From: Chloroflexota bacterium
GTDB taxonomy: Bacteria > Chloroflexota > Dehalococcoidia > Lucifugimonadales > JADFKI01
Assembly: GCA_027623195.1 (NCBI GenBank)
Contig: JAQBUT010000024.1
Location: 1-46,866, forward strand
Direction of reading: 5' to 3'
Length of the DNA: 46,866 nt
Below are positions 4,601-10,600 of this stretch, piece after piece; position 1 is the stretch's first letter, and each line of letters begins with the position of its first letter. Position numbers: made by a program.

Positions 4601-7600
4601 AATTCGACCCGGTGACGCCACCCTCTTGGGGTATGCGCGTACGCGACGACCTGCCCAATAGCACATTTATAGAATTCCCTGGCACTGGTCATGGTGCCAG
4701 CGTCGACAACACATGTGCTCTGGACATCATGATGCAGTTTCTGGGCGACCCCGATGCTTCATTAGACGAGTCTTGCCTGGCGGATTTGACAGGTCCTGCC
4801 TTCGAGGTGCCTGCGTCGGAAATTAGCCTCGTGCCTGTTTTCGACCCCACGTTCGGCAGTTCGGCCATGGCCCCGGAAGGATGGCAAATCATCGCCCCTG
4901 GCATGTACGGTCAGACGGCCCTGGGTGAAACCGCCCTGATAATGCAGTCCGTGCCAGGTCTGGACGAGAACGGGTTTCTCGCTCTGATGGCAGGACAGCT
5001 AAACCTCACGGAGCCTCCACAATCTCGGGGCACTTTCGAGGGAGTAGCTTTCACATGGTCACTATACGGCACTACGGCCCAGGGCCTTACCGTAGATGTG
5101 GCCCTTTCCGAATCCGCAGACGCCGTTTATATTGTGATACTTCAGACTACCCCAGACCAGCGAGACTTCCTGTTACAAGAGGTGTTCGAACCCGTAGTAA
5201 TGGCACTTACTCCCAGTCCCTGAGCACCAGACCTAACAAGACTTCCCACGTCCCCCAGCGTCATCCATTTCGCCATGCCACTTTCACAGACAACCCGTGC
5301 CCCTTCTCGTATAATAAGCGTCGGATTTCCCTTAAAAAACGTCGCAAAGATACTTAAGTGGATTGTCATGAGGAGGATTAATGCCTAAGAGAGTTGCATA
5401 CATAGGCCGTTCGGAACCAGAAATTGCGTTAATAGAACAGGGTCTGGAGGGCCTGGACTACGAGTTGGATATTAACATTGTCGATACACCGGGAGAGATC
5501 ATCGAGGCCATCAAGGGGGCTGATGTAATCCTGAACGGTGGCGTTGAAATGACGAAAGAGATTATCGACGAAATCGATACCGCCCAGGCTATCATCGTCG
5601 GCAGCCACGGATTCAACCACATCGATCATAACGCAGCGACCGCAAAGAACGTGATGGTCGTTAACTGTGCCGGTTTCTGCACAGAGGAGGTATCCAACCA
5701 CGCCATCCTCATGATCATGGCATGCGCGAAGAAGCTTACTATTCTCAACAGCCTGGTCAAGCAAGGGAAATGGGGCGTGGAAACCAGGAACGCCATCATG
5801 CCTATGGCGCCTATCGACGGCCAAACACTTGGACTCGTCGCCTTCGGGAACATAGCCAGAGCCGTCTCTCGCAAGGCGCAGGCACTGGGCATGAACGTGG
5901 TTACATACGACCCTTACTGCCCGCCCTGGATAACCAAAGAGTACAGGACCAGGCAGGTGGCGACGCTACAGGAGCTTGCCACTGACTCTGACTTTATCTC
6001 CGTTCATACGCCTTTGAACGAGGAGACTCGAAAGCTAATCGGAGAGCCGTTCTTCAAGGCCATGAAGCCAACGGCATACTTCGTGAATACCTGCAGAGGG
6101 CCAACTGTCGACGAGGCTGCTTTAATTCGAGCGCTACAAAGTGGCGGAATCGCGGGGGCGGGCCTTGACGTATTCGAAGAGGAGCCTACATCTCCAGACA
6201 ATCCTCTGCTGAAGATGGACAACGTAATCGTTACGCCTCATTCAGCCGGCTCGTCCAACAACTCCAGAGTGCGCTCACCGCTTCGGGTGGGCCAGGAGAC
6301 AGCCCGGCTGTTGAACGGCAAATGGCCGATGTCCGTGGTTAATCCGGAGGTCCGCGCCAATCTTCCGATGCGCCCATTAGCGGAAAACGTCTACGGCGAA
6401 TAACCTGAAAACTGAGCCAGCACCCTCATCTAGAGGGAAATCAGGGGTGGCCTTTGGCCGCCCCTGTTGGCTTCATTAGGCGGCGGTATTGCTGCGCAAG
6501 TCTCCAGCAACGGCTGCCAAGACCTCGCTGCTGGACTGCAACCGAATCGTCCTGATCTCAGGCTTAGCAAAGGCAAAATTCAATAGCAACCCACCATCAA
6601 ATGACGGCCTTGCCTGAAAGCTTCCGCCAGATTGGGAGTACAGGACTTTCTTCCCTGACTGAATTGACATCTAAATACCTCCGACCCTTCGAACCCGTGG
6701 TTATAGATTTCAAGACGCTGTTGACGCAGAGCTTTATCACCGCCCGCGCAAGAATTATTTTTCTGTAATCTCATTCAATCTTGCCACCTGACACCAAGTT
6801 TTACCTGACTTTATCCTCAAAACTACCTGACATATCTGGCCTGCGTCCAAATCGCTGGATGCAAGACGGACCAGCGCCTTATGTACCTCGATTGAGTATT
6901 CCACATCGGTGTGGATGCCTAGCCGAAATCCGTGGTCGTTTGCATGGAATACACAAAGGGATAGCTAAAAATGGTATTAGGGTTCTAACACCGGTTACAG
7001 ATACTTCATTTTCCAAGGAGACGTGCGGTTTTGACAACGTTGTCCGCAGACAGGTCCCAGGCCGAAAGACAACTGGTCGTATTTTCTTTGCATAACGAAC
7101 TTTACGGAGTAGACATCAATGTCGTCCGCGAAATCATTCGGATGCAAGATCTCACCAAGATACCTGAGACCCCTTCTTATGTAGAGGGCGTAATAAACCT
7201 GCGAGGATCGGTAACGCCGGTTATCGACCTACGAAAGCGACTGGACCTTTACGTGGGTGAGGCCACCAACGACTCCAGAATCCTAGTTGTGGATGTCAGG
7301 AGCCAAAACATTGGCGTCATCGTGGACGCAGTTACCGAGGTATTGCGGGTAGCGTCGGATGCCATCGAGCCCACATCATCTATCGTCACTGCTGCCGATT
7401 CTGATTACCTTCTGGGGATCGCGAAGCTAGAGGACCGACTGATCATACTGCTGGACCTGGAGAGCGCGCTGTCCGAACATGCGCTTGAACTTGGCCGACA
7501 GGCTTATCGCGAAGAGAAGCGCCTGGAGGCAACGAATCCCATAGAGGCGGTTCTCGAAGAGGCGATCGCTAAAGAAGACCACGAAGAGGACCTCGGACAT

Positions 7601-10600
7601 CTTGAGGGTAGGGATACGCTATCCAAATTCTACTATCGCCTGTTGGAGGCCTTTCCTGAGATCAAGCCCTTCTTCGCTGAAATGGACAAAAATGAGGCCG
7701 GTGCAGACCTCATGGGCTTTTTGCATCCTATCCTTGATAACCTTGCCAGGCCCGTGGCCTTGCACAATGCCATGGAGGGCCTGGTGGAATATCACGGGGA
7801 CCTGGGCATTAGGCCAGAGCACCATTCGCTGATCGGCGACACCCTGAAGCAGATGGTGTCCGAATACCTGGATATCGGATGGAACGAGGAGTTTGAGGCC
7901 TCGTGGAACGAGCAGTATAACGCGGTCATCGGGGCTCTCGGAGTTTAGCTTCTAGAAACTGACATTGATGAAATAGGGCCGGCAGCGGAAAAGCTGCCGG
8001 CCCTATTCTTTTTATTAAGTTTTGTACCCCGCCTTAATCTACGGTTAATACTAGTTTGCCAAAGAAATTAACTGCCTCCATCGCCTCGTGCGCCTTGGCA
8101 GCGTCCTGCAACGGAAAGGTCTCGTGTATGACACCCTGGATCGTTCCCCTGCCCGCCAACTCAACTATCTGGCGAAGGTCTTCCTTGCGCCCCATGAACA
8201 CCCCGAACACGGTCTGGTAGCGCAGGAACATTAGGCCCATCTGTAACTCGGCTTTGTAACCGCTGGTAACCCCGCATATACCGTATCGGCCACCCATGGC
8301 CAGCGATGCCGTGGCGGCAGGCCAGAAATCGGAGCCAACGTGGTCTAACACGACGTTGACGCCCTGTCCTCCTGTGATCTCCTTCACCCGCTTCGCGATA
8401 TCTTCTGTGTTGTAGTTGATAACATGGTCGGCGCCCAGTTCCCTGGCCTTCTGAGCCTTTTCCTCGGTGCTGGTTGTCGTTATGACCGTGGAGCCGATCA
8501 CCTTCTTGGCCACCTGAATGGCGGCAGTGCCAACGCCGCTGGACGCCGAAGGTATCAGGACCGTCTCCCAGGGCTTAAGCTGGGCTTTGCGCATCAGAAT
8601 GGTCCAGCAGGGCATGAATACCGTGGGCAGGGATGCCGCCTGCTCAAAAGACAGTGAGTCAGGTATGGGAAACGCGTTTACTGCTGGCACGCTGACGTAC
8701 TCGGCGTAACCGCCATTGACGCTGGCGCCCAACATGCCCGCGCTGGAGCAGAACTCCTCCTCCCCCGCCACGCAGAACCGGCACTGGTTGCAGGTTATCC
8801 TCGGGTTCACAACAACACGGTCCCCCACGGCAACACGAGTTACCTGGCTTCCGATTTCCGCGATTTCCCCCGAAACGTCGCCGCCCAGTACGTGAGGGCC
8901 ATTAAATCGGATACGAGTGCCCCTGGCGCCCGCCCTGGTATACAGGTCCAAGCGGTTGAGGGCACATGCCCTCACCCTTATTTTCACCTCGTTGGGGCCT
9001 ATCTGTGGCTCAGGGAGGTCCCCGTAGGTGAGGACATCGACTCCACCGTGCTCCGTCAGGTAAACGGCTTTCATTAGTACTCCATGTGGGAAATTTGCAT
9101 TGGTTTGTTGGCGTTATGCCATGTCAAAACTAGAACACCTCGAAGGACACAGCGTAATCGCAGTCAAAATTGGCTCCGATGGCTGCCCCGATAAATGTCA
9201 GATAGCTTTCGGGGTCGAAGTCCTGGGCGAGATTATCGATGTACGCCCTGTGCTTCTCCAGCGAGGCCACACCCTTATCAATAAAGTCGGTAACATCCAC
9301 GGCATGGGTGGCATCCGGCGACCCTCCGACCAGTATGCTTTTCACACCGTTCCAGGGCTCGTGCCCTTCTTCCAGCAGCTCCGGGAAAATCCAGCGGTTT
9401 CCTGCGTCGCGAGCGGCATCCAGCGTGGCGTGGCCTACGGCGCGATGGTCGGCCATATTGAAACCACCACCAGCCCACCTGACCTGAAAGTTGCCTGTGA
9501 TAATCACGTCTGGCTTGTGCCGCCGAATAGCTCTTGCGATATCACGCCGGAGATCGAGGCCATATTCAATGACGCCGTCTGTGTATCCCAGGAACTCCAC
9601 TGTTTCTACGCCCACCTCCGCCGCGCTCTGACGCTCCTCCTCCTCACGCAAGGGACCGGCCTCGGCAGGCGACATGGCGTCTATACCGGCTTCGCCTCGT
9701 GTCACCATGAGGTAGCTCACCTTCTTGCCCTGCGATGTCCATCGTGCCACCGCGCTGGCAGTGCCATACTCCAGATCGTCGGGGTGAGCGGCTATGGCAA
9801 GAGCCGTGTTCCAGTCCTCCGGCAGGGGTTGGAGCTTGGTATCAGGCATTTTTGTCAACTTTCAAAGAATGGCTTATGTTACGTCAGCGGGCGCACTTTG
9901 GAGGCAAACCCATCCATGCGGGCCAAGGTAGCATCCAGGTTCTCAGCCTGTAGGTTAACCAGCAGATGGTTCACGCCCAATTCCTCAAGGCGCTTCACAT
10001 CATCGGCCACCTGCTCTGGCGTGCCTGTGAGAATCCTTCTTTCGCCGTCCACCATCTCGGCTTCGCGCTCGTTATTCCAGCTAACGCTATAGGCAAAGTC
10101 CAGCGTCTCAGGGTCTCGACCTACCTTCCGAGCATTTTCGCGTACCCGGTCCCGATATTCGGCGTACTGCTCCAATGTGCCTACCGGGAACTTGGGATTG
10201 CTCCCAATGGGGTACCAGGCGTCGCCTAACTGGGCCGCGCGACGCAACGCCGGGGGACTCTCGCCGCCAATCCATAGCGGCGGATGGGGCTTCTGCACCG
10301 GCTTTGGCGCGAACGTGATGTTGGAAAAGTCTGCATACTTACCGTGGAACTCTGGTGCGTCGCTGGTCCACAGCTCTTTGAAGATACTGATATATTCGTT
10401 GGTGACCTGCCCGCGTTCCTCATAAGGCGGAGCGTCTATGGCCTCAAACTCCTCCTTCATCCATCCCACGCCACAGCCTACTGTTAAACGTCCTCTGGAC
10501 AACACGTCGATGGTGGAGAGAATCTTGGCCGTTAGGACAGGGCTACGATGCGGCACCACCATAACGGACGTGAGAAGCCGAATCGAGGTTGTGATGCCAG

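Follow-up and report, generated by a model that had tools for sequence, protein, structure and literature searches.

In textbook chemotaxis, all sensing takes place in the receptors and CheW acts as a passive coupler. A haem globin feeds into chemotaxis in the HemAT-type globin-coupled sensors (GCS), which are described as having an N-terminal globin of the sensor family (protoglobin-related) and a C-terminal transmitter (PMC7475203). Input at the adaptor has precedents, namely CheV, in which an N-terminal CheW-like scaffold is followed by a C-terminal regulatory domain, and the catecholamine binding to CheW reported for Vibrio (PMC8915975, PMC12691637). Of rare fusions of CheW with PAS, too, it has been stated that they 'provide input information' (bioRxiv 10.1101/2022.05.07.491035). 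The closest solved globins to the domain described here are HGbRL (3wfw; E 1e-9) and HGbI (3s1i/3ubc; E 4e-7) from Methylacidiphilum infernorum, of which HGbRL likewise joins its globin to a small domain of signalling type.

In this study, we analyzed a window of 46,866 nucleotides, positions 1 to 46,866 of contig JAQBUT010000024.1 from a Chloroflexota bacterium, which holds a gene joining CheW to a globin. The following features were located:

7015..7021, + strand: Shine-Dalgarno-like AAGGAGA, 9 nt before the TTG start of the CheW-globin gene, read from the sequence
7031..7948, + strand: CheW-globin gene (g00847), 305 aa, TTG start, single uninterrupted ORF
7070..7477, + strand: CheW-like domain, residues 14-149 (Pfam; six-frame profile match 7070-7477)
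7478..7609, + strand: acidic linker between CheW and globin, residues 150-193 (44 residues), pLDDT <50
7610..7945, + strand: globin domain, residues 194-305 (Pfam, PDB alignments, AF2, Foldseek, family alignment), with key residues Tyr201 (B10), Phe215 (CD1), Ala223 (E7), Asp226 (E10), Leu227 (E11) and His255 (F8)
7972..8007, + strand: terminator-like hairpin (15 pairs, 10 of them G-C) followed by the T-run CTTTTTATTA, 3' of the CheW-globin gene

As in HemAT and other GCS, a haem globin with Tyr B10 and the proximal His would feed into chemotaxis, here as a soluble cytoplasmic sensor on the MCP/CheW/CheA complex. Unlike them, CheW-globin has a C-terminal, flavohaemoglobin-like globin, which a flexible linker connects to a scaffold and not to a receptor or enzyme. 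Classification as a HemAT-type GCS was ruled out by the domain order, CheW (14-149) followed by globin (194-305), and by the result for PF11563 (protoglobin), which gave no match in CheW-globin at E ≤ 1. The domain plan resembles that of CheV in giving the adaptor level a site of input or adaptation, with a globin as regulatory domain instead of a phosphorylatable receiver. The receiver profile PF00072 gave no match in the protein, the likeness to CheV being by analogy only, and such a globin would respond to a ligand or to redox state, where CheV takes phosphotransfer from CheA. In the literature searched, we found no paper describing this architecture. The word 'globin' is absent from the main text of both preprints on rare CheW fusions by Vass, Bourret and colleagues (bioRxiv 10.1101/2022.05.07.491035), the supplements of which may list it.

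Gene call and CheW domain

The hairpin at 7972-8007 lies between the convergent CheW-globin and Zn-dehydrogenase genes. The TTG start ('LTT') recurs in 2/2 same-genus orthologues, while other homologues begin with MTT. Contigs from a second study (4345 and 9885 bases) each cover positions 6700-8100 unbroken, with 6 substitutions and 0 indels. Within the genus, dN/dS was about 0.10 for the CheW domain, 0.11-0.16 for the globin and 0.27 for the linker, values which are rough at a dS of about 1 or above; purifying selection acts on both domains. Broken frames of the CheW and globin parts in two divergent relatives (L050; G320/L155) would fit an artefact, whether a chimeric assembly, two genes read through as one, or a pseudogene in decay. 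For practical purposes, this explanation is refuted by the single continuous frame, the independent contigs without indels, at least 21 full-length fusion members from several sources, the synteny and TTG start kept in three species of the genus, and the selection acting on both domains. The CheW-globin fusion is a real gene of a marine Chloroflexota bacterium.

The survey's finding that CheW and a haem-type globin are joined in one gene was thus borne out by the ORF, the domains and the independent contigs. The complete CheW domain it had placed at residues 14-149 (129.7 bits) was recovered with PF01584 at 130.1 bits (cut-off 23.5), covering profile positions 1-136 of 138; in the PDB sequence search, CheW 2qdl matched at E 2.5e-34. 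The domain and the plain CheW of the same genome are close paralogues, 63% identical. V32, E34, I35 and R58 align gap-free to V36, E38, I39 and R62 of E. coli CheW, of which V36 and I39 are receptor-face residues, and V32, E34, I35, L57, R58 and G59 are invariant across 21 CheW-globins. The E38/R62 pair of CheW is described as a conserved functional salt bridge (PMC3828127). These alignments show a complete CheW domain in which the residues aligned with those conserved in functional CheW proteins are retained.

Globin domain, putative haem pocket and linker

The globin match noted before at residues 199-302 (40.8 bits) was found again with PF00042 (42.6 bits, E 1e-10, cut-off 22), and so were the reported PDB matches: residues 165-305 retrieved 3wfw (E 1e-9) and 3ozu/1cqx (E 1.1e-8). 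In addition, 3ubc matched at E 4.3e-7. The flavohemoprotein model NF009805 reached 33.9 bits, far under the 432 bits of its equivalog cut-off. AF2 predicted helices B (194-207), C (209-216), E (220-236), F (241-257), G (262-283) and H (286-304) with pLDDT 80-93 over residues 194-304, and the top Foldseek match of the model was 3s1i_A, oxygen-bound HGbI (TM 0.62/0.66).

In the PDB alignment, the H of VEYHGDLGIRPEH falls on the H of NKHASLGVKPEQ, and FYYRLL on FYQRMF. H255, Y201 and F215 align to His81, Tyr28 and Phe42 of HGbRL as labelled in PMC4476040. Among 33 aligned sequences with identity down to 18%, His255, Tyr201, Leu204, Pro209 and Trp292 are invariant, and Phe215 and Leu227 are conserved in at least 90%. 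The retention of the proximal His and the B10 Tyr, proposed in the survey, is confirmed by these alignments, and the globin most likely binds haem through His255. When the PDB alignment was set against the residue list in section 5 of PMC4476040, 8/8 equivalents of the distal-lining residues of HGbRL were seen to keep hydrophobic or aromatic character (F200, Y201, L204, F215, L227, F230, I268, L272). By its sequence, the domain is a 3-on-3 globin of the flavohaemoglobin-like (F/M) family, within the Hell's-Gate-globin/flavohaemoglobin-like subgroup.

Tyr B10, Phe CD1, Leu E11, His F8 and the lack of a D helix are shared with HGbRL and HGbI. In HGbRL, E7 is Gln, E10 is a haem-ligating Lys and the globin lies N-terminal to its Roadblock/LC7 partner; CheW-globin differs in Ala E7, Asp E10, the position C-terminal to its partner and the lack of a confident A helix. 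E7 is Ala223 and E10 is Asp226 in 7/7 members of the fusion's clade, and E7 is Gln in 26/26 other aligned globin sequences, so that among the 33 sequences aligned the distal exchange of Gln for Ala is a novelty of this clade only. E8 is Gly. The assignment to the flavohaemoglobin type, as made in the survey, therefore stands for the family, the proximal His and Tyr B10, but not for the distal pocket or the A-helix motif.

This motif, LLxxSFxxxxPxG, is absent from the 305-aa protein in the alignment of 33 sequences, either missing or displaced. Residues 165-193, where helix A would fall, have AF2 pLDDT <50, and the A helix has no confident model; NPIEAVLEEAIAKE within the linker is a possible displaced A helix. 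With residues 165-193 modelled at so low a pLDDT, the domain may have an altered pocket or have been put to another use. The linker contains 11 Glu among the 43 residues 151-193. Within the CheW-globin family it measures about 20 to about 120 residues, and the distance from the end of CheW to the B10 motif is 44 to 146 residues (19 members). Such variability makes a defined allosteric path to CheW unlikely and, together with the C-terminal position of the globin, favours a tethered sensor over rigid allostery.

Family and chemosensory context

That the fusion is a family, as previously stated, was corroborated: 8/11 close homologues carry PF01584 and PF00042, the remaining three being fragments of 172-204 aa, and both domains occur in at least 21 proteins among the 120 whole-protein matches listed. 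Among 120 longer proteins listed, eight are receptors combining globin(s), PAS and MCPsignal, and six carry CheW plus 2-3 globins, one of these labelled Gammaproteobacteria. By these architectures, chemotaxis has recruited the same globin subfamily repeatedly. The fusion is present with conserved synteny in 3/3 genomes of the genus, and at none of the six loci examined does a che gene adjoin it. CheW was detected in only 4 of the 41 relatives searched (3/3 in genus g1, 1/1 in genus g406), all four of which also carry the fusion; one same-genus genome shows no plain CheW. The relative G759 has a HemAT-type Protoglobin-MCP (94.9 bits) in addition to the fusion, which is thus not simply a replacement for an aerotaxis receptor. 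CheA was not found in G759 nor in G277 (89% complete); if this absence is real, the function of the fusion is independent of the kinase.

Profile searches reproduced the survey's chemosensory inventory of one che operon (CheA-CheC-CheD-CheY-CheB-CheR-HD_5-unknown-CheX), one MCP (4HB-HAMP), one plain CheW and one archaellin. No further sensor-bearing receptor besides the MCP was found in this 87.03% complete genome. Equally, PF00669, PF00771, PF00482 and PF04659 gave no match in it. The claim of a genome without flagellar or pilus genes needs revision: the assembly is 87% complete, and the closest relative, of the same genus, carries a 79%-identical fusion and an archaellin-ArlG-ArlF-ArlJ-like cluster. 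The lone archaellin here is 80% identical to the second, orphan archaellin of that relative. Most likely, then, the pathway acts on an archaellum, the cluster for which was left unassembled here, and the missing motility apparatus is probably an assembly gap.

Proposed input at the adaptor and rival functions

We propose that CheW-globin is a putative haem-based gas or redox input at the adaptor level, analogous to CheV, and give this reading a probability of roughly 0.45. It draws on the retained pocket residues, the modelled fold, the co-inheritance with Che, the single MCP and the adaptor precedents. The CheW domain would insert into the array baseplate formed by the single MCP and CheA, with the C-terminal globin hanging from it on the flexible acidic tether. 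Tyr201 would take part in reading O2, NO, CO or the redox state of the iron, in a distal pocket that is unusually open (Ala E7, Gly E8). A ligand-dependent shift of the CE loop and E helix, of the kind seen in HGbRL, the nearest solved relative, would then alter the way in which the tethered globin docks on an adjacent part of the array. Docking could then bias CheA activity and hence CheY phosphorylation, which would act on the archaellum and perhaps on the HD-GYP enzyme of the operon, and the one-receptor organism would thereby gain a second sensory channel. Doubt arises from Ala E7, Asp E10, the absent A-helix motif, pLDDT <50 at 165-193, the variable linker, the lack of a che neighbour, the Protoglobin-MCP of G759, and G759 and G277 without CheA.

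Oxygen, nitric oxide or redox state may thus be sensed at the array scaffold instead of by a receptor. If so, the CheW scaffold itself would be an input point of the array, one-receptor organisms would have a means of following oxygen or NO gradients, and globins would be seen to enter signalling by a fourth route (C-terminal, F-family, scaffold-linked). In SAR202-type Chloroflexota, the poorly understood connection between Che and archaellum would be tied to an oxygen or redox cue, relevant in stratified marine and estuarine waters. A bolder version, which we advance tentatively and hold to be somewhat doubtful, is that the scaffold-tethered globin senses O2, NO or redox state and directly biases CheA, so that a one-receptor, archaellum-bearing marine Chloroflexota bacterium would perform aerotaxis although it has no receptor for it. 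The Che system and its sensor-adaptor would be inherited as a unit in this lineage, and certain relatives may have the fusion as their sole CheW, or may use it with MCPs without CheA.

Single-domain relatives of this globin subgroup perform O2 or NO chemistry and are not known to signal, which counts against sensing. CheW might serve only to localise an NO dioxygenase or an O2 scavenger or buffer at the array, sending no signal to CheA. The domain does belong to the flavohaemoglobin/single-domain family and not to the protoglobin-related sensor family (PF11563, no match at E ≤ 1), its best PDB matches are HGbRL, FHP and HGbI, and a long, variable and flexible tether suits localisation better than allostery. 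However, there is neither a reductase partner domain nor a reductase gene in the neighbourhood, NO or O2 chemistry at the array has no obvious benefit, the same subfamily holds the sensor position in PAS-HAMP-MCP receptors, and HGbRL is a putative sensor according to its authors (PMC4476040), so that we regard a chemical role as unlikely.

To a similar degree, we do not expect the globin to be a sensor of a ligand larger than a diatomic gas (a lipid, an azole-like or another small organic compound) held in the enlarged distal pocket (Ala E7, Gly E8, Asp E10), or a haem-less interaction module with a globin fold. The clade-specific Gln-to-Ala change at E7, Asp E10 and the lost A-helix motif would agree with such a role. 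The huge pockets of HGbRL and FHP bind imidazole, azoles or phospholipid (PMC4476040), and a lipid response is reported for HGbI (PMC11203436). Yet the retention of His F8, Tyr B10 and Phe CD1, at dN/dS of about 0.11-0.16, would be unexpected had haem been abandoned. The proposed adaptor input also differs from an architectural role, in which neighbouring globins would self-associate and cross-link or reshape the array, or the fusion would compete with plain CheW and tune the stoichiometry, with or without ligand control. HGbRL is an obligate swapped dimer (PMC4476040), and plain CheW and the fusion coexist here, one same-genus genome showing no plain CheW. This role appears very improbable; against it, the EF region is predicted as two separate helices (220-236, 241-257) and not as one fused helix.

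The fusion gene and its two domains

The CheW-globin protein is encoded by a single open frame in the window, and the features at and around it are as follows.

Features around the CheW-globin gene (window coordinates)
501-2794: receiver-domain protein (223 aa) and hybrid histidine kinase HisKA-HATPase-REC (541 aa), upstream of CheW-globin
7015-7021, plus strand: AAGGAGA, upstream of the CheW-globin start
7031-7948, plus strand: CheW-globin open reading frame, 305 aa, TTG start, no interruption
7972-8007: 15-pair hairpin and T-run after CheW-globin, where the convergent Zn-dehydrogenase gene meets it

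Pfam assigns a full-length CheW domain to residues 14-149 (130.1 bits, cut-off 23.5) and a Globin domain to residues 199-302 (42.6 bits, E 1e-10, cut-off 22). NCBIfam gave 99.4 bits for CheW and 33.9 bits for flavohemoprotein; both scores lie under the equivalog cut-offs, so that the protein can be classed neither as a standard CheW nor as a flavohaemoglobin. PDB sequence searches matched the CheW part to CheW 2qdl (2.5e-34) and reproduced the globin figures and alignments of the survey's finding (the Methylacidiphilum infernorum globin HGbRL, 3wfw, 1e-9; 3ozu/1cqx, 1.1e-8). Two contigs of 4345 and 9885 bases, from a study different from that of the probable source sample, cover positions 6700-8100 in one piece with six substitutions and no indel, which shows that the junction was not made by an assembly error. 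No RNA run was among the sequencing runs listed as carrying the sequence. An assembly chimera is ruled out by these contigs together with full-length family members, and a recoded or frameshifted gene by the single open frame. The claim that CheW and globin are joined in one gene was thus upheld by the Pfam domains, the single frame and the second-study contigs; the gene is real and well supported, and the mechanism proposed for it below is putative. The TTG start (translated LTT...) is common to all three species of the genus (window 7031, locus L004 8463, locus L005 6812).

The CheW domain of the fusion is 63% identical to the plain CheW of the same genome (C16:4585-5061, 158 aa). In an ungapped alignment, V32, E34, I35 and R58 fall on V36, E38, I39 and R62 of E. 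coli CheW, where V36 and I39 are receptor-face positions. All 21 aligned CheW-globins share these four residues and the NLRG motif, and E38 and R62 of E. coli CheW are described as a conserved salt bridge in PMC3828127. Judged by these residues, nothing suggests a degenerate scaffold domain.

Residues 151-193 form an acidic linker (11 Glu in 43 residues) that is poorly modelled, and the distance from the CheW end to the B10 motif ranges from 44 to 146 residues across 19 family members. Within the genus, dN/dS is 0.27 for the linker, 0.05-0.10 for CheW and 0.11-0.16 for the globin, values that are rough because synonymous divergence is near or beyond saturation. By this measure purifying selection clearly acts on both domains, and the tether behaves as a spacer.

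For the globin, the window domain was aligned with 16 other CheW-globins and 16 single-domain Chloroflexota globins (33 sequences). Tyr201, Leu204, Pro209, His255 and Trp292 are invariant in this alignment, and conservation is at least 90% at Phe215 and Leu227. Helix positions were assigned from the HGbRL residue labels available from PMC4476040 and the PDB alignment of the window globin: Tyr201 is B10, Phe215 CD1, Ala223 E7, Asp226 E10, Leu227 E11 and His255 F8. The proximal His and B10 Tyr named in the survey are accordingly His255 and Tyr201 by these labels, both invariant. Hydrophobic or aromatic character is kept at all eight HGbRL distal-site positions (F200, Y201, L204, F215, L227, F230, I268, L272). 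E7 is Ala, within the motif EAGxDL, in all seven members of the window clade and Gln in all 26 other sequences. The A-helix motif LLxxSFxxxxPxG is absent from the window clade in the alignment, and upstream NPIEAVLEEAIAKE may be a displaced remnant of it.

AlphaFold2 with the same alignment modelled residues 194-304 at pLDDT 80-93 with helices B, C, E, F, G and H and no D helix, while residues 165-193 remained below 50. The top Foldseek match was the oxygen-bound Hell's Gate globin I (3s1i_A, E 4.7e-4, TM 0.62/0.66), followed by other 3-on-3 globins and flavohaemoglobin. The Pfam search of the fusion gave no signal for protoglobin (PF11563), by which a HemAT-type sensor globin is ruled out. 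Conservation, model, Foldseek ranking and the missing PF11563 match together place the window globin in the F/M family and not in the sensor family. Sequence and model describe a haem pocket whose proximal side is intact and whose distal side is predicted to be remodelled and opened up. With its E7/E10 changes and poorly modelled A helix, the domain may bind another ligand or have changed in function. A full-length AlphaFold2 model (21 sequences; pLDDT 60.6, pTM 0.43) had no interdomain packing and was kept out of inference.

A second, single-domain globin with canonical Tyr B10/Gln E7 lies on another contig of this genome (C10 ~2980-3680; L082 1100-1800), split over two frames: stop codons end its N-terminal half in one frame, and the other frame holds the E/F-to-H half as a 92-aa ORF. 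It is either a pseudogene or the product of a sequencing frameshift; in the same-genus genome G761 (C302) a globin match lies in an intact 154-aa frame.

Family, distribution and origin

Both domains are present in 21 of 120 whole-protein matches listed and in eight of 11 close globin-region matches, the other three being fragments, which confirms the survey's view that the fusion forms a family. At 50% identity, representatives found with the whole-protein query were mostly multi-CheW proteins, and only P0256 and P0189 were new from this search. P0189 is a giant protein (2461 aa) with many copies of the window-type globin; it has 14 matched stretches, the best of which covers query globin residues 200-303. 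Among 120 matches listed for a globin-only profile run against longer proteins, six join CheW to two or three globins (one labelled Gammaproteobacteria) and eight are receptors combining multiple globins with PAS, HAMP and MCPsignal (one labelled Oleispira); the remaining ones are mostly cyanobacterial tandem globins and globin-pentapeptide-repeat proteins. The first two groups indicate a globin subfamily wired into chemotaxis at both adaptor and receptor level. Three such receptors (P0265-P0267, 1853-1855 aa) carry many copies of the window-type globin.

A class-wide sample of 401 genomes contained a CheW-like match in 83, and CheW and globin parts occurred together in only three: this genome, G277 and G320 (frame broken). 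In the phylum-wide sample the window globin type was found in 42 of 401 genomes; a fusion would not fit into the frames that hold the best 29 globin matches outside this genome (135-236 aa), and the frames of weaker matches reach 422 aa. The contig scan used CheW-part patterns, so that plain CheW genes predominate among its 77 loci; four of these hold intact fusions, and a fifth (L050) is frame-broken. L050 (6565-8286, Chloroflexia chromosome) and L155 (1308-3070, G320) carry very divergent CheW and globin parts beside another CheW-like gene. In L050 the CheW part and the globin part do not share a frame; in G320 an in-frame TAG breaks the CheW part.

Only four of 41 close relatives gave a CheW match, and all four have the fusion (genus g1, 3/3; genus g406, 1/1). 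No CheW match was obtained in 20 genomes of the sister genus g407 in the same family (G764-G783, many closed), in one g405 genome (70% complete) or in 16 genomes from other families of the order. Among the relatives searched, the Che system in the family is limited to the two genera with CheW-globin.

A CheW-domain tree was calculated by a quick method from 127 rows and 139 columns, leaving out own-genome duplicates, the CheA P5 domain and HSPs shorter than 115 residues; many of its forks are not settled. The window clade of seven rows holds together (starred support 99), 19 Chloroflexota fusions form one group (93, unstarred) nested among plain Chloroflexota CheWs, and the six CheW-multi-globin proteins stand on a separate long branch (starred support 100). 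Five label changes were counted, one too many, as the broken fusion L155_1872 was scored 'plain'. From these separate positions the quick tree indicates at least two or three independent CheW-globin fusions.

Chemosensory system and motility

The order 2-hydroxyacid dehydrogenase, CheW-globin, convergent Zn-dehydrogenase, PIG-L deacetylase, luciferase-like monooxygenase and hydrolase is common to the window and two same-genus genomes, and a che gene adjoins the fusion at none of six loci. L004 likewise has a hybrid kinase, similar to that at 501-2794, ahead of its fusion gene; no connection of these proteins with CheW-globin is established. The che operon and the archaellin gene of this genome (2.996 Mb, 65 contigs, 87.03% complete, 3.98% contamination) lie elsewhere.

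Chemosensory and motility loci of this genome (G000)
C16:23390-31326 (L120 2391-10326), minus strand: che operon with CheA, CheC, CheD, CheY, CheB, CheR, HD_5/HD-GYP, 216-aa protein, CheX
C32:7250-8341: lone archaellin, 363 aa, between Usp and MFS genes, no other arl gene nearby

The operon is the only one in the genome and lacks cheW; its 216-aa protein has no Pfam match. Both CheW-domain adaptors are orphan genes, the plain CheW lying beside a REC-LuxR regulator. The single MCP (4HB-HAMP-MCPsignal) adjoins a carbonic anhydrase gene, and one GGDEF protein is encoded.

According to the survey, this genome has no flagellar or pilus genes. Indeed, bacterial flagellin, FlhA, T2SSF/ArlJ and ArlD/E were all without a match in it, but a true absence is unlikely in view of the 87.03% completeness and of archaellum genes in same-genus relatives. 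The relative G756/G761 (89% complete) has two archaellins and a cluster with arlB-, ArlG-, ArlF- (FlaF_Ig) and ArlJ-like genes, G758/G763 has a similar set, and the archaellin of this genome is 80% identical to the second, orphan archaellin of G756. No plain CheW was found in G756, an incomplete MAG. By its CheC/CheD content the che operon is a putative F1-class system. A 2026 preprint describes F1-class systems as coupled with archaella (10.64898/2026.05.11.724246), and archaella in Chloroflexota are reported in PMC12488501 as widespread and functional, with the archaeal adaptor CheF absent there. Given these clusters and the published archaella, the simplest account of the lack of motility genes is a gap in the assembly. 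The Che system probably acts on an archaellum, and a second, c-di-GMP-type output may come from the HD-GYP gene in the operon.

Two further Dehalococcoidia genomes combine CheW-globin with several receptors: G759 (L169 9442-13830; L053) has two MCPs, including a HemAT-type Protoglobin-MCP, and G277 (L154; 89% complete) has four. Neither of these incomplete MAGs gave a CheA P5 or H-kinase_dim match, which may mean either that MCPs and CheW-globin occur there without a kinase or that the assemblies have a gap at this point.

Proposed mode of action

The proposal builds on what is established at the level of sequence comparison: the architecture, the conservation of CheW-interface and haem-pocket residues, purifying selection and co-inheritance with the Che system. 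In the baseplate, the CheW domain of the fusion would fill positions of CheW; the globin would bind haem through His255, with the ligand stabilised by Tyr201. The signal could then pass by ligand-dependent docking of the globin onto CheA P4/P5, the CheW ring or the receptor tip, or alternatively by self-association of the globin. Because the tether is long and variable, either route is likelier than a rigid path through the linker. A prediction of two globin domains with haem, run without controls, scored 0.01 against a mark of 0.42 and speaks neither for nor against dimerisation. In HGbRL, ligand binding is described as reorganising the CE loop and E helix and as able to move a neighbouring domain (PMC4476040), which makes a conformational switch plausible for the window globin. 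Adaptor-level input has precedents in CheV and, as presented in PMC8915975, in ligand binding to CheW in Vibrio campbellii.

The nearest known kinds are regulated CheW adaptors and globin-linked sensors. CheV is likewise a regulated adaptor, but CheW-globin lacks a receiver domain; globin-coupled sensors would share a similar sensing chemistry, but the globin here is neither of the sensor family nor N-terminal. By analogy, CheW-globin would work most like a CheV-style regulated adaptor with globin-coupled-sensor chemistry, being a member of neither group. A survey of CheW architectures names fusions to PAS, which are rare, as a possible source of input, and the word 'globin' is not in its main text (bioRxiv 10.1101/2022.05.07.491035). 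Full-text literature searches gave no paper on a CheW-globin protein; in public records, the family members among the matches listed are named 'chemotaxis protein CheW' or 'globin domain-containing protein'.
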